DNA of 64,000 bases from Planctomycetota bacterium (GTDB lineage: Bacteria > Planctomycetota > UBA8108 > UBA1146 > JAJFFE01), in assembly GCA_046154185.1 (NCBI GenBank), contig JBJXGE010000003.1, positions 21,144-85,143 on the forward strand, given 5' to 3'. The notes under the pieces are model-generated. The model was not told the DNA's origin, did not search any database, and was given only the letters and a program-made list of their open reading frames with translations. Each line of letters begins with the position of its first letter. Position 1 is the first letter of the stretch. Made by a program: the position numbers and the translations under genes. Positions 13,481 through 56,454 of the stretch are shown here, one piece after another.

Positions 13481-14061
13481 CTCAGCATCTTTCTGCTTTG
13501 AGGCCGGCGCGCTCGAGCGGGCTGACACTACCACGAAACTGCGCGAGCGCGAGCCACCAGCGTCACGTCCTCGCAAAGCGAACCCCGGCCGACACCGAAT
13601 CTTGACGGTCCTGTTTTGCGAAGTAGAAGAAGCTCGTCGCTTTCGATCGGAATTCTCCTCGGCAGCGGCGGCACGGCCTCCGGCCGGCTCGCCGATTCCG
13701 CAGGCAGGTAGCTAGGAATGTCGCTAGGAATGTAGCTCTCGGGCGGCCCCAGCCGACCGACAGCCGCCAAACACTGATCGCTCAAACTCAGTACCTGTAG
13801 TGCCAGCGAAGCACGATGGGCTCCACTTCCTTTGCAAAACTGAACGCGGCCACCGCCATGCACAAATTTCGTCCGGGGCTTGGCACGCCCGGGAACGGCG
13901 TCGAGTGCGACGGCGAGTGACGAGCGCGAGATCGGTGCGAGGTGCGGCGAAAGGATGTGCGTTGCGCGGGTCGAGCGCGCTCTCAGCTCGGCGCGCATTT
14001 CGCCAACGGAAAACGGGCTTGCGCCCGTTCCCGAATGGAAACTCTGGAAAGGACACAGCTC

Positions 14062-19820: not shown

Positions 19821-21686
19821 TCACTGCATGCATCCCGGCGTACTCACGCCGGGGTCGAGGCCGGGATTCGGGAAGGGTGGGGGCGGCGGCGCCATGGATT
19901 GAAACAGGTACGCGAGCAAATAAGTCGCGTCGGAGAGGTCGATCGCGTCGTCGTCGTTGGCGTCGATTGCGTCGAAGCACATCGACGGCGTGCCCGTGTA
20001 GAGGACGCGCAGTTGCTCGATGGCGTCCGAGATGTCTATCACGCCATTGCGATTCGCGTCGCCGCGCACGAACGGAGCCAAGTATCGGTAGGCGGCGAAC
20101 GCGGTCGCAGCGGCGCTCGCTTGCGACACCGTCACGTCGACGGCGCCGACGACATGCGCAGGTGCGGTCGCTGTGATCGACGACGCGGTCTGCATCGTCA
20201 CCACCGCGGACGCACCCCCAAAGACGACGGCGAGTGGCTGCGCGGCATCCCAACCGCCGCCGACAATTGTCACGCTGTTGCCGCCTGCTACGGCGCCGAA
20301 ACCGGGAGCGACGCTCTCGATGGCAAGAACCGGCACGGTGCTCAAGTAGGTGTACGCGGCAACCAAGGTACTGGCGCCGCTCGGCGCCTCGACGAGGACG
20401 TCGACGACGCTCGCGGTCGCCGCGGTCGGCGCAATCGCCGCAATATGCGAGTTGTCGACGATGCTAAAACTCGCCGCGTTCAATCCAAAGCGAACGGTGG
20501 AGGCCGCGCCGAGATCGCTTCCGAAGATGTCGACAACGTTGCCGCCCGCGACGGGTCCGCTGGTCGGCGCCACCGAAGTGATGACGGGCGGCTGCGTCAT
20601 TGGCCCGCCGGCGACGAACGCGATCGCCGACGGCGTCGACAACAACGCGCCCGCGTCGTCGAAGTACGGCCGTAGCTCGCCGAGGTCGAGCGCGTCGCCA
20701 TCCGCGTTCAAGTCTTCCGCGATGTAGAGTCGATCGAGTGTGCCATCCGCGAGCAGCAGACGGCCCGGCGCTATGAGCACCGCATCGTTCGGATCGTGAA
20801 CAATGGAACCGGCGGCGGCGCCGTCGAGAAACACTCTCGCCTCGCCAGGGTCGAGCGCATCTCCATCGCCGTTAGAGTTCAGCAAGTACAACACGGTGCC
20901 CGTGTCCTCGTCGATGACATAGACACCGCCCGCGGCATCGACCTGGAGCGCGTCGATGTCCGTCACCGGCACGCCGCCGGCGATCGAGTAGAAGATCGTG
21001 GCCTCGAGCGCATCCATCGCATCGCCGTCGCCGTTCAAGTCGGCGAGTCGAAACACAATGCCGAACGTGCTGTCGCCGACGTAGACGAATCCCGTCGTGC
21101 TATCGATCGCGATGGACTCCGGATCCGTGATCGGCTCGGCGGGCGAAAGCGCCGCTGAGTCGTAGAAGACGCTGAACTCGCCATCGTCGTTCGCATCGCC
21201 ATCGGCGTTGTTGTCGCGCATGCGCAAAATGGCGCGCACGGTTGTGCTGTCGTCACAGACGTAGAGCGCGCCATCGCTGCCGAACGCCATGCCGCCCGGC
21301 GTGCCGAGGTCGAGACCGAGCGAACTGTCATCGAAGAACACGGTAATCTCGCCCGCGTCGTTCGCATCGCCGTCCGCGTTGAGATCCTCGAGCGCGAACA
21401 CCGCGTCGAGCGTGCCGCCATCCAGCAGCAAGAGACGATTGCCGTTGTGGAGCAAGTGATTGGCGCTCGACAAGTCGGGACCGCTCGAAGTGTCATCGTA
21501 GTAAACCGACACTTCCGTCAAGGGTTCGATGCTGCCATCGCCATTCAAGTCGACGAGACGATAGACCACATCGTCCGTCGAGTCGGCGACGAACGTCACA
21601 TCCTGCGCGCGCGTTGGGCCCACGGCCGCGAGCAGGAAACTGAGCACGACGAGCGTGAGCGCTCTTTGAGAGCTGGCAAGAAACAT
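19821..21686 (-). CDS. Secreted FG-GAP-like Ca-binding beta-propeller protein with two IPT/TIG domains and a C-terminal dockerin-like Cys-tail module
   Basis: Signal peptide MFLASSQRALTLVVLSFLLAAVGPTRAQD. Repeated DLNGDGxxD / EDLNADGDANDxGE loops. IPT motifs (PVITSVAPTSGPVAGGNVVDIFGSDLG, twice). C-terminal FVRGDANRNGVIDISDAIEQL...DANDDDAIDLSDATYLLAYLF...PPPPPF. Confidence 0.75.
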   Translation of the reverse strand: MFLASSQRALTLVVLSFLLAAVGPTRAQDVTFVADSTDDVVYRLVDLNGDGSIEPLTEVSVYYDDTSSGPDLSSANHLLHNGNRLLLLDGGTLDAVFALEDLNADGDANDAGEITVFFDDSSLGLDLGTPGGMAFGSDGALYVCDDSTTVRAILRMRDNNADGDANDDGEFSVFYDSAALSPAEPITDPESIAIDSTTGFVYVGDSTFGIVFRLADLNGDGDAMDALEATIFYSIAGGVPVTDIDALQVDAAGGVYVIDEDTGTVLYLLNSNGDGDALDPGEARVFLDGAAAGSIVHDPNDAVLIAPGRLLLADGTLDRLYIAEDLNADGDALDLGELRPYFDDAGALLSTPSAIAFVAGGPMTQPPVITSVAPTSGPVAGGNVVDIFGSDLGAASTVRFGLNAASFSIVDNSHIAAIAPTAATASVVDVLVEAPSGASTLVAAYTYLSTVPVLAIESVAPGFGAVAGGNSVTIVGGGWDAAQPLAVVFGGASAVVTMQTASSITATAPAHVVGAVDVTVSQASAAATAFAAYRYLAPFVRGDANRNGVIDISDAIEQLRVLYTGTPSMCFDAIDANDDDAIDLSDATYLLAYLFQSMAPPPPPFPNPGLDPGVSTPGCMQ

Positions 21687-30341: not shown

Positions 30342-33300
30342 TTAAGGGGCCGGAGCTCCCGCTCCGTTGCGCTTCCACTTCCACTCCTCGACCGCGCAGA
30401 ACACGCACGGCACGATGAACAGGGTGATCAGGCTCACGGCCATCCCACCGACCGACGGGATCGCCATCGGCTGCATCACATCCGATCCGCGGCCAGTGGC
30501 CCAGAAGATGGGCATGAGACCGAAGACCGTGGTCGCGCTGGTCATGAGGCAGGGACGAATGCGTTTCAGACCCGCGTCGATAGTTGCCGCGCGGATCTCG
30601 GCGATGGATGCAAAGCGCCGATCCTTAAACGTTCCTTCCAAGTAGGTGGCGATGACGACACCGTCGTCGTCGACGACGCCGAAGAGAACCAGGAAGCCGA
30701 CCCACACAGCGACCGAGAGGTTCGCGCCCCACAATGCGAGCAAGACGAATCCGCCCGACGCCGAGACCAGCACGCCGAAGAAGATCACGGGGGCGATCCA
30801 CCAGCGCGTGAAGCCCAGATAGAGCATCACGAACATGATGGAGAGCGTGATCGGTACGAGAATCCGCATCCGCGCCGTCGCCCGGACCTGGTTCTCGAAC
30901 TGACCCGACCACTCCCAGTAGTAGCCCGCGGGGAGCTTCAGGCGTCCGTCCTCCACCGCCTGCTGGAGCAACGCTTCGGCGTCGTTGACGACCGATACCT
31001 CGTCACGGTCGCGGGTGTTCATGGTGACGTAGCCGACCAAAAGGCCGCGCTCGCCCTTGATCTCCTGGGGTCCCAAGACGGTGGTGATGGTGGCGAGCTG
31101 GGCGAGGGGCACTTGCGCACTCGTAGAGGTCGGCACGCTGATCCGCTGAATGGCTTCGGTGTCCTCGCGGAAATCGCGGGCAAGACGGATGCGGATCGGA
31201 TAGCGCTCCCGACCCTCGACCGACTCCATCAGGTTCATGCCGCCGAGCGCCATCTCGATGACATTTTGCACGTCGCGGATGTTGACGCCGTAGCGGCCGA
31301 TGCGGTCGCGGTCGATGTCGATCTGGATGTAAGGTTTGCCGACGATGCGGTCGGCGACGATGTCCGTCGCGCCAGGCACCTCGCGCAGGAGTTGCTCGAT
31401 CTGGAGGCCGATGCGCTCGATTTCGCGCAGGTCGGAGCCGAAGATCTTGACTCCCATCATCGCGCGGAAACCGGTCTGGAGCATGACCAGCCTCGTCTGG
31501 ATGGGCTGCAAGAAGGTCGGCAGCACTCCGGGGATGGCGGTTTTCTCCTGGAGCTCCGCGAGGATCTCGCCCTTGGTGATGCGACGTTCCTCGGACCAGA
31601 CCCAGGAGAGCGGCGTGCGGAGGAAGACGGGCCAGTCGGAGAAGAAGCGCTCGACCCTCGTTGTGCGCCATTCGTTTTCGGGCTTCAAGATGACGATGCT
31701 CTCCATCATTCCGATGGGTGCCGGGTCGAGAGCCGACTCGGCACGGCCGATCTTGCCCACGACCGACTCGACCTCGGGAACACTGGCGATGGCGAGATCC
31801 TGAGTGCTGTTCACCTGAATCGCCTGCGAGAGCGAGCCCTGCGGCAAGAGCGAGGGCATGTAGAGGAACGAGCCTTCGTCCAGCGGAGGCATGAACTCGC
31901 GGCCGATGCCGGGCAGGATGCGTCCTTCGCGGACGACGGTCGTGCCGGACGCGATCTCGGTGTCGCGCTCCTTCGGATCGGGTCGACGCCACGCGATGCG
32001 GAAGCGTTCATCGCCGTCTTTCTCACGCAAGCGTTCCCAGCGGAGTTGGTCGAACTCGACGAGTGGACGCTTGACGTCTTCGTCCGGCCGGGCGTGCATG
32101 AGGCGCTTCAGTTCGGCCGATGCTGGTGCGTGAGCAAAGAGGTTGATAGTGGCCTCGATCGGATACAGGGTCTTGCCCACACCGAGCCAGACGCTCAGGC
32201 CGATGAAGAGGATTGTCACGGGAGCAATCAGGAAGGCCTTCTTGTGCCCCAAGATCCACGAGAGCGTTGGGACGTAGGCTCTTGCGACCAGACGCGAAAC
32301 GCGATTCTCTTCGAGTGGCAGGAAGCGTTCGCGAGTCATCCGGACGACACACAGCGCGACTCCCACACCGACGGCCGCTGAGATCAGCCAGCCCTCGTCA
32401 TGTCCTTTGGCGAGGCCCCACATGAAGGCTGCATGGGTCGCGAGCATGGCGAGGACGCCGATGCCGATCGCCATTAAGGCCGTTACTTGCGCGCGCCACT
32501 TCACGGGCCGGAACAGCAAGTAGCACAAAAACGGGACCACGGTGATCGCGAGGACCACCGAGGAGCCGATGGCGAACGTCTTCGTGAACGCCAGCGGCTG
32601 GAACATCTTCCCTTCCTGGTCGGTGAGGAAGAAGACCGGGATGAAAGACACGATCGTGTTCGAGACGGCGGTGATGATGGCACCCCCGACCTCGGTCGCG
32701 CCTTCGTAGACGATTCCGAAGTGGCCCTTCTCTCGCTTCTCCTGCTCGGTGGCCGAGGCGATGCGGCGGTAGATATTCTCCGACATGATGATGCCCATGT
32801 CGGCCACGTCGCCGATCGCGATGGCCAGGCCCGCCAGTGACATGATGTTGCTGTCGACGCCGAACTGGTGCATCAAGATGAAGGTGAGGGCCACGGTCAG
32901 CGGAAGCGTGGCGAGAACTGTCACCGTCGTGCGCAGATGCAACAGGAAGAACAGGATCACGAGGCTCGCAAGCAGCGCCTCCTCGCCCAGGGCTTCCTTC
33001 AGCGTGTCGATCGTCTCGTCGACGATGGTCGTACGGTCGTAGAAGGGGACGATTCGGACCCGCGACTCGCGACCGTCGGCGAGGGTCTTGCTCGGCAGGC
33101 CGAGCTCGAGCTGCGTGATCTTGCTCTTGACCCGCTCCATCACCGCGCGCGGGTTCTCGCCGTAGCGCATGAGCACCACGCCGCCGACGGCCTCAACGCC
33201 GGCCTTGTCCAGAGCACCGCGCCGGAAGTCAGGGCCCAGTTGCACCGTCGCGACGTTGCGCAACGTGAGCGGCGTGCCACCCTGCTCGCGGATCACGACG

Positions 33301-34028
33301 CGCTCGAGGTCTTCGAGCGTCTTGATGAACCCGACGCCGCGGATGAAGAACTCGACACCGTTGTTTTCGACGACCTTGGCCCCGACGTCGATGTTGCTCT
33401 TGCTCACGGCCTCGTACACGTCCATGAGCGTGACGCGATGTGCGCGAAGCCTGTCGGGATGGATGTCGATCTGATACTGCTTGACGAAGCCGCCGATGCT
33501 AGCCACCTCGCTCACGCCCTCGACGGAATTAAGCTGGTAGCGCACGTACCAGTCCTGGATCGAGCGCAGCTCGGCGAGGTCGAAGCCCTCACCCTCCACC
33601 GTGTACCAGTAGATCTGGCCTAGCGCGGTCGCATCTGGCCCGAGCACCGGCATGACGCCCATCGGGAGTCGCTGCTGGGCGACGTTCATCCGCTCCAGGA
33701 CCCGCGAGCGGGCCCAGTAGTAGTCGACGTCGTCCTTGAAGATGACGAAAACCATCGAGAAGCCGAAGCCCGACATCGAGCGGATGGCCTTCACGCCAGG
33801 CGTGCCCGTCAGGCTCGTCGTGAGCGGGAATGTGACCTGGTCGTCGACGTCCTGCGGACTGCGTCCAGGCCAGTCGGCGTAGACGATGACCTGCTTTTCA
33901 CCGATGTCGGGGATTGCATCCACCGGCGAGCGCACGATGGCGAAGTAGCCTCCCCCGCACAGCCCGGCCACGATGAGCGCCATCAAGAAGGGGTTCTTGA
34001 GGCACCAGCGGATGACGGCGTTGACCAT
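30342..34028 (-). CDS. Heavy-metal efflux RND pump, CusA/CzcA family (1228 aa, longer than usual)
   Basis: ATG at 34028 with GAGGGA SD. Starts MVNAVIRWCLKNPFLMALIVAGLCGGGYFAIVRSPVDAIPDIGEKQVIVYADWPG. 12 TM helices. MPPLDEGSFLYMPS-type motif. Confidence 0.9.
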   Translation of the reverse strand: MVNAVIRWCLKNPFLMALIVAGLCGGGYFAIVRSPVDAIPDIGEKQVIVYADWPGRSPQDVDDQVTFPLTTSLTGTPGVKAIRSMSGFGFSMVFVIFKDDVDYYWARSRVLERMNVAQQRLPMGVMPVLGPDATALGQIYWYTVEGEGFDLAELRSIQDWYVRYQLNSVEGVSEVASIGGFVKQYQIDIHPDRLRAHRVTLMDVYEAVSKSNIDVGAKVVENNGVEFFIRGVGFIKTLEDLERVVIREQGGTPLTLRNVATVQLGPDFRRGALDKAGVEAVGGVVLMRYGENPRAVMERVKSKITQLELGLPSKTLADGRESRVRIVPFYDRTTIVDETIDTLKEALGEEALLASLVILFFLLHLRTTVTVLATLPLTVALTFILMHQFGVDSNIMSLAGLAIAIGDVADMGIIMSENIYRRIASATEQEKREKGHFGIVYEGATEVGGAIITAVSNTIVSFIPVFFLTDQEGKMFQPLAFTKTFAIGSSVVLAITVVPFLCYLLFRPVKWRAQVTALMAIGIGVLAMLATHAAFMWGLAKGHDEGWLISAAVGVGVALCVVRMTRERFLPLEENRVSRLVARAYVPTLSWILGHKKAFLIAPVTILFIGLSVWLGVGKTLYPIEATINLFAHAPASAELKRLMHARPDEDVKRPLVEFDQLRWERLREKDGDERFRIAWRRPDPKERDTEIASGTTVVREGRILPGIGREFMPPLDEGSFLYMPSLLPQGSLSQAIQVNSTQDLAIASVPEVESVVGKIGRAESALDPAPIGMMESIVILKPENEWRTTRVERFFSDWPVFLRTPLSWVWSEERRITKGEILAELQEKTAIPGVLPTFLQPIQTRLVMLQTGFRAMMGVKIFGSDLREIERIGLQIEQLLREVPGATDIVADRIVGKPYIQIDIDRDRIGRYGVNIRDVQNVIEMALGGMNLMESVEGRERYPIRIRLARDFREDTEAIQRISVPTSTSAQVPLAQLATITTVLGPQEIKGERGLLVGYVTMNTRDRDEVSVVNDAEALLQQAVEDGRLKLPAGYYWEWSGQFENQVRATARMRILVPITLSIMFVMLYLGFTRWWIAPVIFFGVLVSASGGFVLLALWGANLSVAVWVGFLVLFGVVDDDGVVIATYLEGTFKDRRFASIAEIRAATIDAGLKRIRPCLMTSATTVFGLMPIFWATGRGSDVMQPMAIPSVGGMAVSLITLFIVPCVFCAVEEWKWKRNGAGAPAP

Positions 34029-34044
34029 TGTGAATCCCTCGCCC

Positions 34045-35649
34045 TCAGTGCTTGTGTTGACTGGCGCCGCTGGGAGGCGTCGTGGGACTCTTCGATGGCT
34101 CCTTGGAAGCGGGCGAGGTCGACCCATCGTGCTGATGGCCAGTCGAGCCGCCCATGAGCCCGCCGGGGTAGAACAGGCTCGGATGCCCGGTGATCTGGAA
34201 CTGGCTGTCGATCAGGAATCCGCCACGAGTCACCACGTGCTCGCCGTCATCGAGCCCGTCGAGCACTGGAAAGAACGCTCCTGTGCGTGGTCCCAGAATG
34301 ACCTCCCGCGGTTCGAACAACCCGCGAGACTTCTCGACGTAGACGAGTCTCCGCGTTCCGCTGTCGAGCACCGCGGTCGCCGGTACGGAGAGCAGCCCGG
34401 GACCGGCAGGGGTCGGCGGCGCCACGAGCTCGAGCTTCATGTTGCAGACCGGGCAGTTTCCTGGTGCGGCAGAGGTCTTCGCGTTCTCGCACTTCATCGG
34501 GCACGCATATTCCGCAACGGCTGGAGGGGCCGGTTCCAGCCCTGGGATTTGCTCGAGCCGCATTTCGCAGATCGGGCACTCGCCCACCTTGTCACGCAGC
34601 ACTTGTGGGTGCATCGGGCAAGAGAACTTGCCTTCGACGCCCGTTGGCGCGGCGCGCCCATCACTTGCCAGGGCTGAGCGGACCACTGCGCTCACGAACA
34701 TGCCCGGCTTCAGCGTGTGGTCCTTGTTTTCCACGTGGACCGGCACTCGGATGGTGCGCGTCTCTTCCGTCACGATTGGCTGCACGAAGGTGACGAGCCC
34801 CTCGAATACGCGCCCCGGGAGGGCTTCCGCGACCAGGTCGACGCGCTGCCCATAGCGGACCCACGCCAGGTCGTATTCGTAGATGTCGAGGTACACCCAC
34901 ACGGTGTCGAGGTTGGCGATGCGATACAGCACGTCGCCGGTCATGAACGCGCTGTTCTCGAAGATCGACTTCTCGATGACCGTACCCTGGATGGGCGAGT
35001 ACAGCGTGACTCGGTCGGCGATTTGCTTCTTCTCGACCAACGCGGCGATCTGTTCCTCGGTGAGGCCCCAGCGCCGCAGCTTGAGTTTGGCCGTCTTCAC
35101 CAGCGGCTCGTTCTCGGCGTCCGCGCCGCCCTGGAGGGCGATCAAGAGCTCCTGCTGGGCGACGATCAGATCGGGGCTGTAGACCTCCGCCAGGTGATCG
35201 CCGGACTTGATCTCGACGCCAGTGAAGGTCACGAACAAGCGTTCAGCGTAGCCATCGACTCGCGCTGTGACTGTCGCGAGCGAGGACTCGTTGTATTCGA
35301 TTTTGCCGACCGCTCGTAGCTCCCGGGAGAGTTCCCGCCGGGTCACCGGCGTCGTTTCCACGGATGCCATCGCGAGAGCGTGGTCGGAGAGTTGGAGCAT
35401 CGGCTCTCCGCTCGACCCCGTCTCCGCAGCACTCGCGGGGATGAGGGGCATCTCGCAGATAGGGCACTTCCCGGGGCGGTCCAAGCGGACCTGCGGATGC
35501 ATCGAGCACGTGTAGACCTGTTGCGCTGCGGACGGAGCAGCTGCATCGGTCGAGGCGGACTCAGGCCGGTGAGTCGAGCGGCCGAGCATGAAACCGCCGG
35601 CGGCGGCGGCCACGACGACCAGCGCGATGAAGATGCAATTCCGGTTCAT
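34045..35649 (-). CDS. Efflux RND adaptor subunit, CusB-like, with three N-terminal C-x-MHPQV/CPMK metal-binding motifs
   Basis: ATG at 35649 with GAGGAG SD. Motifs YTCSMHPQVRLDRPGKCPICEMPL, FSCPMHPQVLRDKVGECPICEMRL, YACPMKCENAK..NCPVCNMKL. ATGA overlap with the upstream OMF. The track ORF start at 36237 is an artefactual extension. Confidence 0.85.
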   Translation of the reverse strand: MNRNCIFIALVVVAAAAGGFMLGRSTHRPESASTDAAAPSAAQQVYTCSMHPQVRLDRPGKCPICEMPLIPASAAETGSSGEPMLQLSDHALAMASVETTPVTRRELSRELRAVGKIEYNESSLATVTARVDGYAERLFVTFTGVEIKSGDHLAEVYSPDLIVAQQELLIALQGGADAENEPLVKTAKLKLRRWGLTEEQIAALVEKKQIADRVTLYSPIQGTVIEKSIFENSAFMTGDVLYRIANLDTVWVYLDIYEYDLAWVRYGQRVDLVAEALPGRVFEGLVTFVQPIVTEETRTIRVPVHVENKDHTLKPGMFVSAVVRSALASDGRAAPTGVEGKFSCPMHPQVLRDKVGECPICEMRLEQIPGLEPAPPAVAEYACPMKCENAKTSAAPGNCPVCNMKLELVAPPTPAGPGLLSVPATAVLDSGTRRLVYVEKSRGLFEPREVILGPRTGAFFPVLDGLDDGEHVVTRGGFLIDSQFQITGHPSLFYPGGLMGGSTGHQHDGSTSPASKEPSKSPTTPPSGASQHKH

Positions 35650-37064
35650 GGAAGCGTCTCCTCGGGACGGCTCGCGCCCCCTTCGAGGGTTGGTGCACCG
35701 GCGGGCGGAACGCCGGCGATGGCCAGCGACAGGGATGCGAGCGCCAGCTCGCGCTGCGTGCGAGCCTCGATGCCCGCAAGCTCGAACTCCAGTAGAGTAC
35801 GCTGGGCGTCGATGACGTCGAGGAAGCCGGCGCGGCCGTGCACGTAGCCCGCGCGCGCGGCATCGAGCGACTGCTTGGCCTTGGGCACGAGCTTGTCCCG
35901 CAGCAGGGCGTCGTTGCGGACGGACTCGCGGTACATGAAGAGCATGGAGGCGAGCTCGGCCGCGACTTGCACCTGTTCTGCGTTGAGGCGGGCTTGCGCG
36001 GCACGCTTGCCAGCCTGCGCGCCCGCGATCTGCGCGGCAATCTTGTCGCGCCAGATGGGTAGGCTCATTCCGGCCGAAGGTCTGAACATGGTTGGATCCG
36101 CCTTGACGTCTACCTCGAGGCCGAGGGAGAAGTCGGGAACGCCTGACTTGCGTGCGAGCCGCAGCGACGCCTCGGCTCGCTGCACGTCCTCTTTCATTCC
36201 CCGAAGGCTCGGGTTCCGGTTGAGGGCAGTGGACCACAAGTCCTCGGGCCGAGGATCTCCAGTGGAAGGCTCGAATGTCGAGGGGAGCGGCGGATCCGCG
36301 TCATCCGGGCCGAGGCCGAGCGCCGCCTTCATCTCCGCGACGAGCGCGCTTCGAGAGTCCTCCAGGTTCGTGATCTGGGTCTCGACTTGGTCGCGGGCGA
36401 TCTGCGCGCGGAGGACATCCTGCAGCGTCACCCTCCCCGCGGCGTTCTGCTGTTGCGCGAGCTGTTCGAGATCCGTGAGGAGCCCGAGCGTCTCGCTCTC
36501 AACTCGGATCGTCTCCTCGAGGAAGTGCAGCCTGTAGTAGGCCGTCTTGACGGCCAACGCGGTTCGGAGGATTTCACGCTCGAAGCCGTAGTAGGCGACG
36601 CGGCTCTCGGCCGCCATCACAGCGCCCGCCGCACGGAGCTTTCCGGGACCGGGCAGATCGACCATGAGCCCTGGCATGAGCGACATGACCGTGTCGGTGA
36701 TGTCGCTCTCGAAGGTGAGCCTCGGGTCGGGCAACGAGCGGGCGGACGTGATGCCTTCGACTGCCGCCACCCAGTCGTAGTACGCTGCTTCCACGCGTGG
36801 GCTGTTCAGCAGCGCAAGCCGCAGGTAGTCGGCCAGGGGCGATGCGGCGTTAAGTTCCGGGAGCTCGGGCCTCGCATCCTCGGGGCGGTAGCGCTTCGAG
36901 ACATCGTCCACGTCGGAACGGGCCGCTCGCTCCGAGGGCGTGGAAGTCCCAACGCAACCGACGGCCCCGATCCATGCCGCGAAGCCAACGAGTGCATAGG
37001 AGAGCGACACTCGACACGAATGGGGGAGGCGTCGAGGGCGGTGATGGCGACGGAGTGAAAACAC
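35646..37064 (-). CDS. TolC-family outer membrane efflux protein, lipoprotein
   Basis: OEP repeats. Lipobox AWIGAVGC. Start uncertain: GTG at 37064 gives VFSLRRHHRPRRLPHSCRVSLSYALVGFAAWIGAVGC. Track start 37172. Confidence 0.75.
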   Translation of the reverse strand: MFSLRRHHRPRRLPHSCRVSLSYALVGFAAWIGAVGCVGTSTPSERAARSDVDDVSKRYRPEDARPELPELNAASPLADYLRLALLNSPRVEAAYYDWVAAVEGITSARSLPDPRLTFESDITDTVMSLMPGLMVDLPGPGKLRAAGAVMAAESRVAYYGFEREILRTALAVKTAYYRLHFLEETIRVESETLGLLTDLEQLAQQQNAAGRVTLQDVLRAQIARDQVETQITNLEDSRSALVAEMKAALGLGPDDADPPLPSTFEPSTGDPRPEDLWSTALNRNPSLRGMKEDVQRAEASLRLARKSGVPDFSLGLEVDVKADPTMFRPSAGMSLPIWRDKIAAQIAGAQAGKRAAQARLNAEQVQVAAELASMLFMYRESVRNDALLRDKLVPKAKQSLDAARAGYVHGRAGFLDVIDAQRTLLEFELAGIEARTQRELALASLSLAIAGVPPAGAPTLEGGASRPEETLP

Positions 37065-37560
37065 GTCGACCTTGTCGTGGTTCGATTCCTGATCCTGACA
37101 CCGCGGCGCTTTTTGCAACTTGCCTGAGCCCAGCCGAGCCGCCCTCAGCTGGCGTGATCGCCGAGCGTACACTCAGCCATGTCGCGAGCTACCGTCTAAC
37201 GCCGAGTGCCAACCGAAAGTGCCCGCGCGCGGGAATCTAAGAATAACCGATTCGCCTCGCCTTCCGCTGGCGATCCATGGCGTAAGAAAAAATCGGGTAC
37301 GCCAGCGCCATTCAGCTCGCCGATTTGACAGCAATTGACCGGATAAAAGGAACCGCAAACTAATCCAGCGGCAATCGGCGAAACAAGCCTGCCGATTGGT
37401 CTTCGTTCCCGTTCATTCCTAGTCCGACTGCTAGGCCGCATTCAAGTCCATTGTGACGGGTCACTGATGTGACTATGCTTTCGCTCGTCAAGTATTCCGT
37501 TGCTTCTTGCCGTTCAGAACGAAATGGGTCGGCATGCTGCAAATCGCTGGAGCAGATACG

Positions 37561-39999
37561 ATGCGCGTTCGCGTGCGAGGTCGCGGCTTTCGAGCGTGGA
37601 TCGCCCTCTTCGCCTTTTCGGCGACGCTTGCCGGTGCATGCGTTTTGACGCCCGCCGCAGCGCAAGCGCCGATTCGCTACGACGGGCACGCGGTGGTGCG
37701 GGTCGCGATCGCGAACGAAGCGGAACTCGCACAACTGCTCGCGCTCAATCTCGACATTTGGACCGATGCGATTGGCATTGGCCCGCTCGACGTGCGCGTC
37801 GCTCCGGACGAATGGCCGAGCCTTTGGACGAGCGGGCTTCCTTTCGAGCCGCGTATCGTCGATGTGCAAGCGCTCATCGATGCCGCGACGGCGAGCAGCG
37901 CCGCCGCCGGCGCGCCGATTGGCGGCGGTCCCTTCGGTGGCGCACCGCTTGGCGGCGTCTCGTGGTTCGCGGACTACAAGACCTACGACGAGGTGCTCGC
38001 GCAGCTCGTCGAACTCGCGGCGGCGCGACCGGATCTCGTGACGCTCATCGATGTCGGGGTGAGCGTCGAGGGCCGGTTGATTCGCGCGGTGCGCGTGACC
38101 GGCACGGCCGGCTCAAACAAACCCGGCTTCTATATCGAAGGTTGTCAGCACGCGCGCGAGTGGGTCGCGGTGATGGCGCCGGTCTATGCCGCCTGGGCGC
38201 TCGTCGAGTTCTACGACCTCGACCCCGAAATCCACGCGTTGATGGACAGCGTCGAGTTTTTTATCGTGCCGATCGTGAATCCGGACGGCTACGTTTATTC
38301 GCACGCAGTCGATCGACTGTGGCGAAAGAACCGGCGGGTTAACGGCGACGGAACAATCGGCGTCGACTTGAACCGCAACTGGTCCTACGAGTGGGGTGGC
38401 CCAGGGTCGAGCCCCGCGACTTCGAGTCCGGTCTATCACGGCACCGGACCGTTTTCGGAGCCGGAGTCGAGCGCGGCGCGCGACTTCGTTCTGGCGCGAC
38501 CGCAAATCGCTGCGTTCCTCGATGTGCACAGCTACTCGCAGTTATTGTTGCAACCGTTCGGATACACGGTCGCGCTGCCGCCCGATCAAGATTTTTATCA
38601 CCCGCTTGGCGCGGAGATCACGGCGGCGATCGGCAGCGTCCACGGCGCGACCTACTTGCATGGGCCGGGCGGCCTCATTCTGTACGTCGCGAGCGGCACG
38701 GCGCAGGACTGGGGTTACGGCGTCGCCAGCGCGGTCGCGATGACGATCGAATTGCGCGACACCGGCCAATTCGGATTTCTGCTGCCGGCCGATCAGATCT
38801 TGCCGACGTGCGAGGAAGTGTTCGCGGGCTTGCGCGTGTTGGGGGACACCATCTCTCGCCCGTTCGCCTTCAATTTTCCACAGGGTCTGCCGGCGCGCGC
38901 GGCGCCTGGGGCCACGACGATGTTCCCGGTCGACGTGCACGCGATCGGCGGCGCCACGCTTGCGGCTGGGTCGCCGCGCATCCATACGCGCAGCACCGGC
39001 GGCGGCGCGTTCGTCGAATCGCCGCTCGAGTTCACGGGCGGTACGTTGTACACGGCGACGCTGCCGGCCGCGCCGTGTGGAAGTTCGATCGAGTTTTACT
39101 TCACGGCGGCGAGCGCGACGGGCGGCAGCGCAAGCGGTCCGATCGATGCGCCCGGCGAGGTGTATGCGACGCCGGTCGAGCTCGAGCTTGTTGCCTTCAG
39201 CGATGACGGCGAGTCCGAGCTTGGCTACGTCGTGTCGGGCGACGCGATCGCGGGAGTGTGGAATCGCGGCGTGCCGGCTGGCGGCGGCGATCGCGGCGAT
39301 CCGCCGTTCGACGCCGATGGCAGTGGGCAGTGTTATCTCACCGACTTAGCGGATGGCGACACCGACGTGGACGGCGGCAGCACGATTCTCACGTCGCCGC
39401 TTTTCGACGCGACGGGCGGCAACGCGACGCTCAGCTATTACCGGTGGTACTCGAATGTCGCCGGCGGCACGCCGGAGCAAGACGTGTTCGTCGTGGAAAT
39501 CTCGAATGACGGCGGGGGAAGTTGGGTCGTGCTCGAGGTCGTCGGACCCGCCGGGGCCGAGGTCCAAGGCGGTTGGATTGCGCGCAGCTTCGCAATCGCA
39601 GACACGCTAGCGCCCACCGCGGCGATGCGCGTGCGATTCACCGCGTCAGACGTGGCGCCCGGTTCGGTCGTGGAGGCTGGGGTCGACGGAATCGTAGTTG
39701 GTGTTTACGGCTGCCTCGCTGTGCCTCCGAGTTTCATACGCGGAGACGCGAACGCCGACTCGCATTTCAACATCGCCGACGCCGTGTTCACGCTCGTGTA
39801 TGTGTTCGGGGGCAACGCGAGTTCGTGCCAGCTCGCGCTCGATGCAAACGATGACGAAGCCGTAAACATCGCCGATCCAATCTTCTTGCTCACCCAACTC
39901 TTCGCGGGCGGCGCACCGCCGCCCGGCCCGTACCCGGGCTGCGGCATTGACCCGACGCCCGGATCGCTCACCTGTGATGCGTACGCGCCGTGCCCGTGA
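37561..39999 (+). CDS. Secreted zinc carboxypeptidase (peptidase M14) with C-terminal dockerin-like Cys-tail module
   Basis: M14 signatures: HAREW (Zn His/Glu), NPDGY, DLNRNW, HSYSQ. Signal peptide MRVRVRGRGFRAWIALFAFSATLAGACVLTPAAAQA. C-terminal FIRGDANADSHFNIADAVFTLVYVF...DANDDEAVNIADPIFLLTQLFAGGAPPPGPYPGCGIDPTPGSLTCDAYAPCP, ending in a stop codon. Confidence 0.85.
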   Translation: MRVRVRGRGFRAWIALFAFSATLAGACVLTPAAAQAPIRYDGHAVVRVAIANEAELAQLLALNLDIWTDAIGIGPLDVRVAPDEWPSLWTSGLPFEPRIVDVQALIDAATASSAAAGAPIGGGPFGGAPLGGVSWFADYKTYDEVLAQLVELAAARPDLVTLIDVGVSVEGRLIRAVRVTGTAGSNKPGFYIEGCQHAREWVAVMAPVYAAWALVEFYDLDPEIHALMDSVEFFIVPIVNPDGYVYSHAVDRLWRKNRRVNGDGTIGVDLNRNWSYEWGGPGSSPATSSPVYHGTGPFSEPESSAARDFVLARPQIAAFLDVHSYSQLLLQPFGYTVALPPDQDFYHPLGAEITAAIGSVHGATYLHGPGGLILYVASGTAQDWGYGVASAVAMTIELRDTGQFGFLLPADQILPTCEEVFAGLRVLGDTISRPFAFNFPQGLPARAAPGATTMFPVDVHAIGGATLAAGSPRIHTRSTGGGAFVESPLEFTGGTLYTATLPAAPCGSSIEFYFTAASATGGSASGPIDAPGEVYATPVELELVAFSDDGESELGYVVSGDAIAGVWNRGVPAGGGDRGDPPFDADGSGQCYLTDLADGDTDVDGGSTILTSPLFDATGGNATLSYYRWYSNVAGGTPEQDVFVVEISNDGGGSWVVLEVVGPAGAEVQGGWIARSFAIADTLAPTAAMRVRFTASDVAPGSVVEAGVDGIVVGVYGCLAVPPSFIRGDANADSHFNIADAVFTLVYVFGGNASSCQLALDANDDEAVNIADPIFLLTQLFAGGAPPPGPYPGCGIDPTPGSLTCDAYAPCP

Positions 40000-40218: not shown

Positions 40219-41892
40219 TCACGGGCATACCGAGCTTGTGCAGGCGAGCGTATCCGGTGTCGGATCGGCGCCGCAGTCCGTGGGTGGTGGCAGCGGCCCC
40301 CGCAGGGCGAATAAGGCCGTGAGTTGCGCGATAGCGTCGGAGATGTCGAGCGCGCCGTCATCGTTGCCATCGCAGCTATCTGAACAATCGAGTAGCGGCA
40401 ACGCGCCGAACAGGTACGCGAGCAGCGTGATCGGATCCGCGATGTTGATGCCGTCATCGCCATTACAGTCGCCGCGCTGGAATGGGAGCGACGACTCGCA
40501 CTCATCGGGAATGCCATTCAGATTGATGTCGGGGCTCGCGCCACTGAGGATGTCCTGGGCGTCGCCCGTGCCATTCTGATTGCAATCGGTGTCGCCGATC
40601 CGCAAGTAGTAGACATCTTGCTCGCCATTGAAGGTCGCCGCGTAGGCGACGTCGACGCCGACGAGGTCCGAGACCATATCGTAGTAGTCGCCGAGCTTCT
40701 GCTGCTGCGGCCAACCGAGATGCGGATCGAAGGCGATGCTCAGCGCTTGATTCGGCGACCAGCTCAGCCCGGCATCGAGCGACGAGCTATAGTAAAGCTG
40801 CGACCAGAACCCGCCCGGATTGGCGCGCGTGTCGTTCCAAATAACATCGAGTCGACCGTTGGGCGCCACCGCGAGCGTGCCGAACCACTGCCAATCGTTG
40901 CTCCCGAGCGGATCATCGTTTATGCGCACCGGTGGCTCGAAGGAGACGCCGCCATTGGTGCTGCGCACCAGATGCACGTCGAGCGGGTCGCTGCCAGGCG
41001 GATTGACCGAGCAGAGCACGTACACATAGCCACGCGTCGGGCCGGAGCTGTGGTCGACATCAATCCAAACCTGCCCGAGCAGTCCTCCGGGGTTGGGCCC
41101 GCCACCGTATACGAGCGCGCCGCCAAGATCGACCACCGTCGCGAAGTCGAAGGCGAGCGCCGCTCCGGGATCTGCGATGGTCGTCGACTTCGCCACCACG
41201 AACTCGTCGTACACCGGCGAACGTCGCCCGGCGATGTAGACTTCGCCATCCGGGCCAACGGCGACGACACCCCACACCGGCTGCTCAGGGATCGGCACCG
41301 GAGGCTCAAATGTCGCGCCGCCGTCGGTCGAGCGATTGAACCAGTTGTCGCCGCAGCAGCCAGCATAGTCCCACGCCGCGTAGATGTTGCCGTGCCCGGG
41401 ACCGCCGGTGCGATCGATGGCGATCCAAGCTTTGTCGCCTCCGTAGGCGTCAACACCTGTGTCCCACGTCGCACCGCCATCGAACGAGCGGAAAAGGTCG
41501 CACGAATAGCCGCCGCCGGCGGTGGTCAGGCTGTGGTAGTAGATGACGCCGTTGGCATCCGCCTCGAGCACAGGATCGGAGCGAAACACGCCCGGCTCGA
41601 TCACGCCGGGAAAAGTCCACGCAAGTCCGCCATCTATCGAGTAACCCCAACCTGCTTGGCGGAAATTGCTGGCGACCGTGTCGAATTGGCGCCAGCCGAT
41701 CGCGACTCGTAGCGGATTGGTCGGATCGACGGCGATCGACGGCTCGTTCGCGGCATCGCCGATCGTATTCATGCCGGCAGCATCGACGTTTACTTGCACG
41801 CTCACGAAACCGCCGAAGATCGATTGCGCATTCAGACGCATCGAGACTGCCAACAATAGCAGAACGAGTAGCGAGATCGGAGTGTTTCGCAT
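40219..41892 (-). CDS. Secreted BNR-repeat (sialidase/glycosidase-like) beta-propeller protein with C-terminal dockerin-like Cys-tail module
   Basis: Signal peptide MRNTPISLLVLLLLAVSMRLNAQS. BNR motifs SIDGGLAW, SFDGGATW, STDGGATF, STNGGVSF, LDAGLSW. C-terminal FQRGDCNGDDGINIADPITLLAYLF...DGNDDGALDISDAIAQLTALF...PLPPPTDCGADPTPDTLACTSSVCP, ending in a stop codon. Confidence 0.8.
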   Translation of the reverse strand: MRNTPISLLVLLLLAVSMRLNAQSIFGGFVSVQVNVDAAGMNTIGDAANEPSIAVDPTNPLRVAIGWRQFDTVASNFRQAGWGYSIDGGLAWTFPGVIEPGVFRSDPVLEADANGVIYYHSLTTAGGGYSCDLFRSFDGGATWDTGVDAYGGDKAWIAIDRTGGPGHGNIYAAWDYAGCCGDNWFNRSTDGGATFEPPVPIPEQPVWGVVAVGPDGEVYIAGRRSPVYDEFVVAKSTTIADPGAALAFDFATVVDLGGALVYGGGPNPGGLLGQVWIDVDHSSGPTRGYVYVLCSVNPPGSDPLDVHLVRSTNGGVSFEPPVRINDDPLGSNDWQWFGTLAVAPNGRLDVIWNDTRANPGGFWSQLYYSSSLDAGLSWSPNQALSIAFDPHLGWPQQQKLGDYYDMVSDLVGVDVAYAATFNGEQDVYYLRIGDTDCNQNGTGDAQDILSGASPDINLNGIPDECESSLPFQRGDCNGDDGINIADPITLLAYLFGALPLLDCSDSCDGNDDGALDISDAIAQLTALFALRGPLPPPTDCGADPTPDTLACTSSVCP

Positions 41893-42397
41893 CGGTTGCC
41901 CGGGGCAAAGCGTCCTGCTAATCGAGGCGATTGTCAAGCAGCAGGCGGCGGCGACGAGGGACACAGGGCCAGCTCGATCATGATTCTCGGTACTTCCAAT
42001 CTGTCGAGGCTCCCTCGCCAAAAAGGGCGCCCGCCTGATCGGGGTCCATATTTTCTCGTCCTGGATCGAGAAGGCGGCAACGCGGGGGTTGCCAGTGAGG
42101 TGCGGAGACACTACCTTTACCTTTAATAAATTGCCGGAGGGCTCGGCGAACACGGGAATAAGTCAGGGATAGCGAGTCAGCCGCTTGAGGTGTCCCGGTG
42201 ACGATTTGATCGCGTGGGATCGGCTTGCCCCAGGCATAGAGAGCAGAAAAACATGCGCCATCCAGTCATTCTTTCCGGCAATCGCTTCACCTGAGTTACG
42301 GGGCCGAACCGTTCGGTCCCGCCTTATTGCTGAGCACTCGAGGGGGAAGAAGGAGTAGAAGAATCCGATAATTCACTGACGAGGAAAGTGGGAAACC

Positions 42398-44716
42398 ATG
42401 CGTGCACTCGTACGGAGATGCTGTGTTGGCTCGGCGGTTGTATTGCTGCACTCGCTTGTGATCGTCATCGCTGTGCTGTCGACCACATTGGCGAGCGGCC
42501 AATACGCAACGACTTTCGACGCGCTCTTGGGAGATGCTGACGGCGAAACTCTGGTAGGTCAGGACTCCTACTATAATCCTGTCCCAGCGACCAGCGTCCC
42601 AGCGCTCGTCTATACCTATGCCGGCAACGTTCTCGGCGTGCCGGTGAACCCCACTGGCGGCGACAAATTCGCGGCTGGTGTCGGACCAGGTGGAAGCGTA
42701 TTCATGCGCACACAGCGCGACCTGGCATTTGGCGCCGGCACCGGCATTTGGTCGATCTCCTACGATGTCTCGGTGTCATTCATTGGTACCTTGCCGACGG
42801 CTCAAAATGCCGGCAGCGTTTCCACGCAAACGTTCCCGGGCGACAAAACTTTTATCGCCCTCAGCACCTGGACTGATATCACTACGGCCGCGGCCTGGAA
42901 CGCAGACTACGTTTGGTTCAACGCGACGGGCACGCAGCTACAGGAAATCGTGCCAGACCCGGCTTTCCAAAACCTCGTCGCGAACCAGTGGTATCGTCGA
43001 ACAACAATATTTAGTCTCGACACTTACCAGATACTCGAGGTCAGAATCACCGATCTCACGACCGCCATCACGACGAGCTACTCGCCGCCGGATCGCTACC
43101 TGTTCGGCGGCACGGCCTTCGCGCCGCCGTGCGATGGTTACCGCATTTTTGCCGGTGCCGCAACTGTCGCGGGCAATGTCGTCGCGTATGACAATGTCGT
43201 GATCGAGCAGATCATTCCGCTCTGCGCACCCATTGCGAGCTTAGTCTGCAGCGTAGACTGCGGTGCCGGCACCGTCGCGTTGAGCTGGCCCGGTGGGGCC
43301 TACACTGCGATCGAGGTTGAACGCGACACCATCTTGATTTCCACGCTCCCCGGAGGCGCCACCGGATTCGTCGACAATCCTGGTGTTTCCGGTAGCTATT
43401 CGTATCTGGTGCGCGGCATCTGTGCAGGCGGACCGGCGCTTTCAGGTCCGGTTTGCAATGCAGAAATCGCGATCGGCGGCGTCCAAGAAAACATCATCTG
43501 GGCGGGCGAGTCGGCCGCTCAAATCGATAGCGTGGCAGCGCTTGATGCGGCGATGACTGCGGCCGGCCTCGCGCACACGGTAGTGGCCGATTTGGGCAAC
43601 CTACCGTGTGGCGCAACGCTCACGCCATCAAACCGCGTGTGGGGCGCCATGGGTAGCTTCCCCAGCAATCACCCGATTTCGGTGGCCGAAGGCATGTTGC
43701 TGCGAGACCACGTTTTGGCGGGTGGCCACGTTTACATGGAGGGTGGCGATATTTGGGGTTTCGATCCGGCCACCGCCTTCAATACGGTCGATGGGATCGC
43801 CTCTCCGGCGGTCGACGGCGGCGATGACTTCACCGCCATGGTCGGATCGAGCTACGATGACGCCCAGTTCGCGGGATTGAATGCTGCATACAACCAGGAC
43901 CAAGCGGGCAACGACTGGACCGATCAGATCGCCGCCACCGCGACTGACATGGCGGGACCGAACGCCGGCGTGGTTTGGAATCGTGACGTGGGCGGCGGAG
44001 TCGCGGGTTACGGCACGGGCGTTTTCCACGCCAGCGACCAGCCTTTTGGTCGGGTGCTCAACCAGTCGTGGGAGTTCGGCGGCTACGGCGGCGACCAAAA
44101 CGCGCTGATACTCGCGTATGACGATGCGCTCCGCCGAGTGGGATCGCCGAGCGACCTTACTTGTTCGCAAGTGGGGACCACGGGTTCGGTGGATCTCGCC
44201 TGGACCAACCCGCAGAACTACGACAGCGTCAACGTCTACGTCGACGGTCCGCTCTACACCACGCTTGGCCCGCAGGCGGCGGGTTCGGCGTCCGCAACAA
44301 TTTCCGGTCTGTCAGTCCCCGGAGCTCACACCATTTGCATCCAAGGTGTGGTCGCGGGCGAATTGTCGCGACAAGTCTGCTGCATGGTCACTTTGGTCGC
44401 CCCGCCGGTCGACCTGATCAAGGTCGCCGACATCAATGGCGACGGCGCCGTCAACGTCGCAGACCCGATTAACATCCTCTCCGAGTTGTTCCCACCCATG
44501 CCTGGCCCGTCAGGCGGGTTCATAACTCTGGCCGGATGCCCAGCGGGCTTCGACTGCAATGGCGACAACATGGTCAACATCGCCGACCCGATTTTCTTGC
44601 TCAGTTGGCTGTTCTCGATGGGGCCGCCGCCGCCGGCCTGGCTCGGCACCGTGCCAGCTTGCAACCCAGCGAGCCCGATCCTCGGCTGCTTGTTCCCGCC
44701 GACTTCCTGCGATTGA
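42398..44716 (+). CDS. Secreted large protein with FN3-like Cys-containing repeats and C-terminal dockerin-like Cys-tail module, hypothetical
   Basis: Signal/TM N-terminus. Two FN3-like segments. C-terminal INGDGAVNVADPINILSELF...DCNGDNMVNIADPIFLLSWLFSMGPPPPAWLGTVPACNPASPILGCLFPPTSCD, ending in a stop codon. This is the most divergent copy of the module. Confidence 0.7.
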   Translation: MRALVRRCCVGSAVVLLHSLVIVIAVLSTTLASGQYATTFDALLGDADGETLVGQDSYYNPVPATSVPALVYTYAGNVLGVPVNPTGGDKFAAGVGPGGSVFMRTQRDLAFGAGTGIWSISYDVSVSFIGTLPTAQNAGSVSTQTFPGDKTFIALSTWTDITTAAAWNADYVWFNATGTQLQEIVPDPAFQNLVANQWYRRTTIFSLDTYQILEVRITDLTTAITTSYSPPDRYLFGGTAFAPPCDGYRIFAGAATVAGNVVAYDNVVIEQIIPLCAPIASLVCSVDCGAGTVALSWPGGAYTAIEVERDTILISTLPGGATGFVDNPGVSGSYSYLVRGICAGGPALSGPVCNAEIAIGGVQENIIWAGESAAQIDSVAALDAAMTAAGLAHTVVADLGNLPCGATLTPSNRVWGAMGSFPSNHPISVAEGMLLRDHVLAGGHVYMEGGDIWGFDPATAFNTVDGIASPAVDGGDDFTAMVGSSYDDAQFAGLNAAYNQDQAGNDWTDQIAATATDMAGPNAGVVWNRDVGGGVAGYGTGVFHASDQPFGRVLNQSWEFGGYGGDQNALILAYDDALRRVGSPSDLTCSQVGTTGSVDLAWTNPQNYDSVNVYVDGPLYTTLGPQAAGSASATISGLSVPGAHTICIQGVVAGELSRQVCCMVTLVAPPVDLIKVADINGDGAVNVADPINILSELFPPMPGPSGGFITLAGCPAGFDCNGDNMVNIADPIFLLSWLFSMGPPPPAWLGTVPACNPASPILGCLFPPTSCD

Positions 44717-55350: not shown

Positions 55351-56454
55351 TCACGGGCACGGCGGAAAGGCGTCGCAGGTCAGCGCGCCGCTGGTGGGGT
55401 CCGCGCCGCACGCGCTCGGAGGCGGCGGCAGCGGCGCCCCGGCGACGAACAGCGCCGACAGCACCGAGACGGCATCCGCAATGTTGACACTCTCGTCGTC
55501 GTTGGCGTCGGCAGCTTGGGCGCATGGTAGGAATCCCATGCTGAACAGCCCGCTCAAGATGCTGATCGCATCGGCGATGTTGAATGTGCCGTCCGCGTTG
55601 GCGTCCCCGCGGCGGAACTCGTCTTGTACCGGGCCGGCTGTGAATGCGCCGCCCCAGACGAACAGCCCGCAATCGTAGTTGTCATCTGTGCTGTCTGCGA
55701 CTGCAAACTTAAGCGTGTTTGCGCCGGGCACGACTTGAGCCGTTGCGCTGAGATATCCCATGACGCCGAAGTAGTCCGGTGCGAGCGGATAGGCGTCGAG
55801 AACGAAATCCGGCGGCACGAAGGTGAAATCGCTCGACATCGCAATCACCGGGTTGCCATCAATCTTGAAGAGTCGTTGTTCGCCGTTGGCGAACACTGCG
55901 GCCACGTCGGGATAGGGCGACATGCCAAAACCGTACTCCTGGCTGCCATAGGCGGCGAGCAGCGAAATCTCTCCGGCGCTTGCCGAGTTGAACTCGATCA
56001 CCAGGCTCGAGGCATCGCCGGTGCTGGTGCTGAATCCAAACTCGCTGAGTAGCGCATCGAGATCGGCGTCGCCGGGTAGACCGAGCGAGCGGCCTGGAAA
56101 CGGGAAGTAACCGGGGAGCGTCGGCTGGATGTCGACGGCTCCGCCTGAGGTCAGCAACAAACCGGGCGGCTCGCCGGCGAAATATGTATCTCCCGGTGTA
56201 TACACTCCCGCACCGATCAGTGCGCCGGTGTACGTCACCGAAGTAATACTTATTCCGGGCGCGCTCACGAAGGCGAGTGTGAGCGCGAGATCGGTCGGCG
56301 TTGCTGTGGGAAGCGTCGTTACTGAAACGACGGGTTGCGCAGGCGCTGTGGAGACGAGTACGAGTCCCATTGCAAGCGCGAGCCCAAGACTTATAAGCCC
56401 CCGCCAACCGGCTGTGCGGCGTGCGCAGCACTCGAACTTTGTGAAGGCAAACAT
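55351..56454 (-). CDS. Secreted beta-rich protein with C-terminal dockerin-like Cys-tail module
   Basis: Signal peptide [42 protein letters not shown]-terminal [25 protein letters not shown]...[52 protein letters not shown], ending in a stop codon. Confidence 0.75.

Follow-up and report, generated by a model that had tools for sequence, protein, structure and literature searches.

The 64-kb window analysed here, that is, the whole stretch of 64,000 nucleotides from contig JBJXGE010000003.1 of an uncultured Planctomycetota bacterium, contains a gene for a secreted M14 carboxypeptidase (Pfam Peptidase_M14, E 2e-79) whose product ends in an 88-residue cysteine-tailed module. The open reading frame (ORF) spans positions 37507..39999 on the forward strand, with a probable start at 37561 and a signal-peptide-like N-terminus (MRVRVRGRGFRAWIALFAFSATLAGACVLTPAAAQ), and the protein is 100% identical to P0272, which bears the NCBI name "M14 family metallopeptidase [Planctomycetota bacterium]". 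Its C-terminal 88 residues, FIRGDANADSHFNIADAVFTLVYVFGGNASSCQLALDANDDEAVNIADPIFLLTQLFAGGAPPPGPYPGCGIDPTPGSLTCDAYAPCP, are followed by TGA, and the interval 39733-39999, singled out by an earlier note that had been made from the sequence alone, corresponds exactly to this module and its stop codon. From the N- to the C-terminus, the module consists of two dockerin-type calcium loops, a Pro-rich turn and the ending CGxDPTxxxLxCxxxxxCP-stop. The earlier note had described the ending as a three-Cys tail. All three tail cysteines are present in the extension AGGAPPPGPYPGCGIDPTPGSLTCDAYAPCP, but they do not stand alone: a fourth cysteine lies in the linker between both calcium loops (..SSC-QLALDAND.. 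in the M14 copy). We have named the module DocCys, a predicted calcium-binding dockerin module that is a distinct subtype with a C-terminal extension of ~27 residues, PPPxPxxxCGxDPTxDxLxCxxxxxC.

The six-frame scan of the window revealed seven copies of the module. Six of them form the very C-terminus of ORFs that begin with a signal-peptide-like sequence and, as had been noticed before, stop 0-2 residues past the last cysteine (CP-stop in three copies, C-stop, CD-stop and CMQ-stop); five of these six end at TGA. Such regularity is far beyond chance. The seventh copy is no degenerate exception: according to our analysis, it is an intact N-terminal module of a 1420-residue protein, placed directly after the signal peptide. 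The cargo in the window thus comprises six dockerin-bearing proteins, namely the M14 carboxypeptidase, a BNR/Asp-box protein, a choice-of-anchor L protein, a TIG/NHL/choice-of-anchor Z protein and two proteins of no recognised type.

Dockerin identity and spread of the module

The dockerin-like character of the repeats was confirmed by both profile and fold comparisons. Two tandem segments of ~22 residues, DANADSHFNIAD plus a helix and DANDDEAVNIAD plus a helix, each contain a 12-residue EF-hand-like calcium loop, and in both loops the sequence provides the canonical calcium ligands D1, N3, D5, N9 and D12. The profile of 127 family members matched the solved type I dockerins in PDB with an E-value of 8e-6; moreover, Pfam Dockerin_1 (PF00404) was matched at E <= 1e-5 by 13 of the 75 family members from other genomes, the best value being 3.9e-14. 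The AlphaFold2 model of the module, obtained with the alignment of the 127 members, reached a predicted local distance difference test (pLDDT) score of 96 and a predicted template modelling (pTM) score of 0.87. It shows three helices (two long ones, H20-32 and H53-64, and one short) and isolated bridges only. When the model was compared with PDB using Foldseek, the best 29 matches were all dockerins, with target-normalised TM scores of 0.51-0.81. Taken together, the profile match, the fold match and the canonical calcium loops allow us to assign the module to the dockerins.

The solved dockerins lack the ~27 C-terminal residues of DocCys: the sequence matches stop at position 96 of the 126 profile positions, and 54-72 of 94 residues could be aligned structurally. 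The C-terminal domain of the type IX secretion system (T9SS), a beta-sandwich of ~80-100 residues, was considered as an alternative identity and rejected, because the model is helical and no match to a T9SS family of NCBIfam or Pfam was obtained. None of the six window tails matched the GC-type dockerin NF041540 (cut-off 29 bits), even at E <= 10, and the curated NCBIfam anchor families likewise gave no match for the window tails at this level.

The module is widespread. The profile of the seven window copies matched at least 990 proteins in a search limited to 8000 scored candidates, and the carriers, where named, are nearly all annotated as "hypothetical protein" and originate from metagenome-assembled genomes (MAGs) of uncultured Planctomycetota. 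The peptide pattern DAADANDD gave 480 confirmed matches when one genome per species was scanned. These were concentrated in Planctomycetota MAGs, with a few in Hydrothermota, Omnitrophota and Eisenbacteria bins, and some single genomes contributed 14-15 of the best 79 loci. In other genomes, the module is combined with cargo as diverse as Laminin_G_3, FG-GAP, PKD, beta-helix, subtilases, di-haem peroxidase, CotH and LTD, among others.

The counts of cysteine presence and of chain ends given here and below refer to the best 120 of the at least 990 profile hits, and the spacing counts to those 99 of the 120 whose tails fitted the pattern. The fixed cysteine spacing that the earlier note had suggested as a check holds across the homologues: the distance from the CG cysteine to the LxC cysteine is 11 residues in 85 of the 99 tails, and that from the LxC cysteine to the final cysteine is 6 in 81 of them. 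The chain stops 0-3 residues past the last cysteine in 110 of the 120 hits, while up to 70 residues may follow it. Positions P70, P72, G77, D79 and C87 of the tail are near-invariant, and CGxDPTxDxLxC is conserved as strongly as the calcium loops. The copies of the module in the window and the associated features are listed in Table 1.

Table 1. Positions of the DocCys modules and associated features in the 64-kb window
Feature	Position	Strand	Basis
DocCys, six-Cys variant ending at the last Cys; C-terminus of ORF 13942..15045 (probable start 14062)	14782..15042	+	
Predicted cohesin module with the signature GWSFGVCHD; C-terminus of the 1420-residue protein	15226..15711	-	AlphaFold2 and Foldseek
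DocCys at the N-terminus of the 1420-residue adaptor-like protein 15223..19485, after the signal peptide; tail intact, then PDDPVPPP...	19126..19392	-	
Two-Cys variant, CG Cys and terminal Cys both absent; C-terminus of the TIG/NHL/choice-of-anchor Z protein 19821..21686	19830..20072	-	
M14 carboxypeptidase gene, secreted, with C-terminal DocCys	37561..39999	+	Pfam Peptidase_M14
DocCys module of the M14 protein	39733..39996	+	final 88 residues, before the TGA stop
Tail extension of the M14 module, Pro-rich turn and three Cys	39904..39996	+	model pLDDT 92-94 in the last two 10-residue blocks
DocCys, six-Cys variant; C-terminus of the BNR/Asp-box protein ORF 40219..42153 (probable start 41892)	40222..40482	-	
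Divergent module, five Cys, insertion between the loops; C-terminus of ORF 42398..44716	~44420-44713	+	
DocCys at the C-terminus of ORF 55351..56454, choice-of-anchor L protein	55354..55617	-	NF038133, E 1.3e-15

Order of the tail and probable pairing of its cysteines

In the model, the last three blocks of the module have pLDDT values of 97, 94 and 92, and the isolated bridges assigned by DSSP are found at F7, C38, G77 and C87. The high pLDDT of the tail and the positions of the bridges indicate that the tail is an ordered part of the fold rather than a disordered signal.

The cysteines themselves are kept or lost in pairs. The linker cysteine is present in all 120 of the best hits and the LxC cysteine in 119, whereas the CG cysteine and the final cysteine occur together in 105 sequences and are missing together from 12; only 3 sequences have one without the other. 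Two of these three, P0032 and P0119, still end in a late cysteine, which is placed elsewhere by the alignment. The association between the CG and final cysteines has a Fisher p of ~1e-13, a value that overstates independence because the sequences are related. An additional pair, formed by a cysteine in loop 1 (GDC) and one just before loop 2 (xC-DxNDD), behaves in a similar way: both cysteines occur together in 12 hits, one alone in 4 and neither in 104. This pair is carried by the window copies at 14782 and 40222, which therefore contain six cysteines.

The same regularity is reflected in the parity of the cysteine counts, which was taken from untrimmed sequences of 132 modules (79 loci and the window); the trimmed alignment undercounts the final cysteine. 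Among these classified modules, the number of cysteines after the last helix is three in 108, one in 18 and another number in 6. As the tail count is three or one in 126 of the 132, the addition of the linker cysteine makes the total almost always even. Furthermore, for 14 of the 30 two-Cys variants the nearest neighbour in the dockerin core was a four-Cys module, and therefore the CG cysteine and the last cysteine have repeatedly been lost as a pair.

Since the cysteines are kept or lost in pairs, the simplest reading is that the module contains two intradomain disulfides. Covariation, parity and the bridge positions make the pairs linker Cys-LxC Cys and CG Cys-last Cys the most likely ones, and a third disulfide would exist in the six-Cys variants, to judge by their sequence. 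The disulfide-knot cap, which was among the possibilities raised initially, is thus the reading that we favour; the paired gain and loss of cysteines and the ordered tail support it indirectly but consistently.

The tail is not linked to the type of enzyme that carries it. Orthologues of the M14 protein were found mostly in Phycisphaerae or Phycisphaerales MAGs; the CG..C..C tail is present in 2 of 120 of them, and at least 60 have other dockerin-like double loops. Absence of the tail from homologues in related genomes had been put forward earlier as an argument against its function. Our results are divided on this point: within the module family the spacing is strongly conserved, but the M14 orthologues in related genomes mostly carry other dockerins without the tail. 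This leads to the conclusion that the tail goes with the dockerin subtype and not with the enzyme cargo. The ending [WF]GxC(P)-stop, in combination with other loops, occurs in 45 of the 120 orthologues, often with Cys-Pro immediately ahead of loop 1. The C-termini of M14 orthologues (P0274-P0391) match NF041540 weakly, with 17-18 bits against the cut-off of 29. These sequences suggest that dockerin types have been swapped on one enzyme family and that the M14 orthologues possess a different disulfide clasp; planctomycete dockerins may in general be clasped by disulfides.

Predicted cohesin partner and possible role of the tail

The 1420-residue protein with the N-terminal module consists of a signal peptide, DocCys, then ...GSACPDDPVPPPAP... 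and ~1300 more residues, the last ~160 of which form the module at 15226-15711. For this module, AlphaFold2 produced an all-beta model with a pLDDT of 92.6, and the best 50 Foldseek matches in PDB were all cohesins (E down to 1.7e-8, TM up to 0.81). Searches of the module against Pfam and NCBIfam gave no match, and its identity was therefore decided by the fold comparison, according to which the modelled domain is a cohesin. A Cys-rich stretch of the same protein (16768-17172, reverse strand), ...CCKYEPEPNGCG...ACDTHDICYGTC..., is similar to the CCxxHDxCY motif in the active site of secreted phospholipase A2; its Pfam matches are sub-threshold (PLA2G12, E 0.008; prokaryotic Phospholip_A2_3, E 0.094).

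Relatives of the window cohesin share the signature GWSxGVCHD. The word-index search had returned one protein, and the exhaustive search used here yielded 546 cluster representatives, with typical lengths of ~270, 440, 600 and 760 residues, which correspond to one to four matched stretches. Tandem cohesins (one to four copies) are often followed by a Cys-tailed dockerin. Such a dockerin was present on 138 of the 151 relatives examined (150 listed and P0121), and 127 of the module occurrences were C-terminal. At related loci, proteins with the order signal peptide, DocCys, cohesin(s), DocCys were found, with sub-threshold matches to Pfam Cohesin. The combination of cohesin and dockerin on one small protein could allow the formation of chains.

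Our computations show that the two modules have dockerin and cohesin folds, that the tail is ordered and the cysteines are conserved in pairs, that the module is independent of its position in the protein and that the domains co-occur. We consider it likely that the 88-residue element is a DocCys dockerin, the tail of which is stapled by two disulfides and which docks secreted cargo on cohesin scaffolds. The ~27-residue extension would fold back onto the dockerin core and would be fixed there by the two disulfides, as a covalent version of the "intramolecular clasp", and in this way we infer a stabilising role for the tail. Proteins bearing the module would be exported by means of their N-terminal signal peptides and, outside the cytoplasm, the module would dock non-covalently on cohesin modules such as that at 15226-15711. 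The presence of DocCys and cohesin on the protein 15223..19485 would represent an adaptor architecture. Cell-surface scaffold proteins would come to carry peptidases, adhesin-like proteins and further cargo.

Several observations weigh against this interpretation. The window copies score 9.6-20.4 bits with Pfam PF00404 Dockerin_1, all of them below its gathering score of 22.9. Disulfide pairing is deduced entirely from covariation, parity and bridge positions, and the cysteine count from the first loop onward is odd in 19 of the 120 best hits. In the window, the copy at ~44420-44713 has an insertion of ~8-14 residues between the calcium loops, a cysteine inside loop 2 and an odd number of cysteines (five), and does not fit a simple scheme of two disulfides. 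We identified neither a membrane nor a wall anchor on the scaffold. Finally, a function of the whole module in sorting would likewise be compatible with its C-terminal bias (88%) and with the choice-of-anchor domains that two of the cargo proteins possess; families of the choice-of-anchor L and Z type occur with alternative C-terminal anchors.

The tail might also serve mainly as a recognition surface that reshapes the cohesin-binding face and thereby creates a new specificity type, separating DocCys cargo from other planctomycete dockerins. We regard this as rather unlikely to be its main function, and it is compatible with the stapled dockerin described above, as the disulfides would merely hold the surface in shape. 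Conservation of CGxDPTxDxLxC and of the near-invariant tail positions at the level of the calcium loops would be expected of a binding surface. The partner cohesins form a family of their own, GWSxGVCHD, unseen by Pfam and NCBIfam, which largely occurs together with DocCys on the same proteins; in addition, the other dockerin types on the Phycisphaerae M14 orthologues would be expected if the types were not interchangeable. On the other hand, the two-Cys variants, with half of the staple missing, have been retained in the same genomes and proteins, and the classical binding-helix residues (IADAI..L..LF, in both halves) are highly conserved, so that the core could suffice for binding.

The earlier note had proposed that the ending is a C-terminal sorting or covalent-anchor signal, in which a dedicated enzyme would read PxPPP...C..C and cleave the protein or attach it covalently to the envelope. 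The position of most modules at the extreme C-terminus, the short distance from the last cysteine to the chain end and the choice-of-anchor L and Z domains of two cargo proteins are what such a signal would predict. Yet among the 136 complete modules for which the end of the ORF is known, 120 lie at most 10 residues from the stop and 4 within 40, whereas 12 (~9%), including one in the window, are N-terminal. These 12 follow a signal peptide, have an intact tail and continue with Pro-rich linkers (...CAAYAHC-LPDPPPS..., ...CVSYEHC-PQEPPEP...) and hundreds of further residues; some proteins have one module at either end. Recognition by an unknown processing enzyme, which had also been suggested, finds no support in these N-terminal copies, where the tail is kept and a long polypeptide follows. 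Moreover, the model shows an ordered, packed tail, unlike extended or transmembrane signals, its cysteines are gained and lost in pairs, ~10% of the modules are devoid of two of the three tail cysteines, and the chain may extend well beyond the last of them. We agree with the previous view that the tail is not a variant of PEP-CTERM or LPXTG, as no hydrophobic transmembrane or basic stretch follows the motif. Families of the sortase, exosortase or rhombosortase type were absent from the 26 larger ORFs of the window that were scanned with Pfam. We therefore consider a sorting or processing signal very improbable. The chain end adjoins the last cysteine because this cysteine marks the boundary of a domain that is usually C-terminal; the conserved "CP-stop" ending is such a boundary and does not represent a new sorting signal, which removes a false lead.

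Selenocysteine read-through of the TGA after ...CP was also considered and rejected: one copy stops at TAG, the downstream in-frame translations share nothing and are not protein-like, and the N-terminal copies continue with Pro-rich linkers.

It also seems very improbable that the four cysteines, in spite of their conservation and fixed spacing, bind a metal (a Zn- or Fe-type Cys4 site), or that the terminal cysteine forms an intermolecular disulfide with one of the conserved cysteines of the partner cohesin family (GVCHD, FC, CG) as a covalent lock: the proteins are exported, and in exported proteins paired cysteines usually form disulfides; the loss of exactly two cysteines while the other two are invariant fits two independent disulfides better than one Cys4 site; the six-Cys variants add one further pair; and, with four cysteines in the window cohesin and an even number (two, four or six) in most window DocCys modules, there is no obvious free thiol for a lock.

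Cohesin-dockerin pairs are best known from the cellulosomes of anaerobic Firmicutes and are widely used as connectors in protein engineering. The cellulosomal pairs are, to our knowledge, free of disulfides, whereas the DocCys family of uncultured, mostly aquatic Planctomycetota appears to use dockerins reinforced by two of them. If this is true, it would explain how the exoproteome of these bacteria is organised and would provide a connector pair with natural disulfide stabilisation, suited to oxidising conditions. As a more speculative extension, which at present seems doubtful to us, DocCys and the GWSxGVCHD cohesins would constitute a separate, uncatalogued cohesin-dockerin type that serves as the main display route for tens of secreted proteins per genome in a large uncultured lineage of Planctomycetota, replacing classical sorting signals; the stapled tail would then be the part of the interface that sets its specificity and may be sensitive to redox conditions, and not a passive cap.

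Among the other genes of the window, a heavy-metal or RND efflux operon (30342-37172, reverse strand) lies directly upstream of the M14 gene. It encodes an AcrB/CusA-like pump (30342..34127), a membrane-fusion protein with three CPMHP...CPxCxM repeats (34045..36237) and a protein that resembles an outer-membrane factor by its translation alone (35646..37172). A bacterial alpha-2-macroglobulin of 1808 residues (57173-62599, forward strand) contains MG2, bMG3, bMG5, bait region, TED and bMG10 domains; this protease-trapping protein adjoins a locus rich in secreted peptidase-type cargo. The selenocysteine-specific elongation factor SelB is encoded at 25336-27333 (forward strand; Pfam GTP_EFTU and SelB-wing_3), and the organism therefore probably makes selenoproteins. 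Two zf-HC2 anti-sigma-type proteins, one of which has a thioredoxin-like domain (7465-8859, reverse strand; the other at 27885-29165, forward strand), and Sigma-54 (11362-12756) were also found.

Comparison with known systems

DocCys shares its duplicated unit of calcium loop and helix with the type I cellulosomal dockerins (PF00404; Clostridium thermocellum Cel48S and Ruminococcus flavefaciens group 1). Both are usually found at the C-terminus of secreted enzymes and at the N-terminus of adaptor scaffoldins, and both co-occur with cohesins. In contrast to type I dockerins, DocCys has ~27 additional C-terminal residues with three cysteines, as well as the cysteine in the linker between the repeats; its host is an uncultured member of the Planctomycetota, and its cargo consists of peptidases, adhesin-like and uncharacterised proteins instead of cellulases.

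A non-covalent "intramolecular clasp" between N- and C-terminal residues (e.g., Trp-Pro stacking) has been shown to stabilise calcium-bound cellulosomal dockerins and was proposed to be common to dockerins in general (Slutzki et al., 2013; PMC3821032). In DocCys, as in the clasp, the end of the module would be tied back to the body of the dockerin. The DocCys clasp would differ in being covalent, with two predicted disulfides, and in involving a long added tail and the linker between the repeats.

The curated GC-type dockerin (NCBIfam NF041540, "GC-type dockerin domain-anchored protein") is likewise a dockerin variant treated as an anchoring domain; the term "GC-type dockerin" was not found in the literature searched. 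The modules of the M14 orthologues that match this family weakly have cysteines at both ends (CPxD...WGxCP-stop), which suggests a disulfide clasp combined with a "CP-stop" ending. In DocCys, by contrast, the cysteines are in the linker and the added tail and not at both termini, and the helices have LF..G in place of WG.

A parallel to the system in the window is the "planctosome", a non-cellulosomal cohesin-dockerin system hypothesised for the Nemodlikiaceae (CL500-3 clade, Phycisphaerae). In the retrieved passages of the paper that describes it (Andrei et al., 2019; PMC6461901), M14 subfamily A carboxypeptidases and M12B peptidases use dockerins to attach to an adaptor composed of a signal peptide, a dockerin, a hyalin repeat and a cohesin. 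The window, as compared with these passages, likewise holds a dockerin-bearing M14 enzyme and an adaptor made up of signal peptide, dockerin, middle domains and cohesin. Cysteine tails or disulfides are not mentioned in the retrieved passages of PMC6461901. Further differences are that the window cohesin is undetected by Pfam, that the DocCys cargo extends well beyond peptidases and that we saw no scaffoldin with an LTD anchor in the window. If our interpretation is true, the dockerin, cohesin and adaptor encoded within one 64-kb window would supply concrete parts for the so far purely hypothetical planctosome. Overall, DocCys and its predicted cohesin partner appear to form a non-cellulosomal cohesin-dockerin system, of a kind that has been hypothesised but never characterised, and the dockerin subtype, with its conserved and probably cysteine-stapled extension, represents a new form of a known module.

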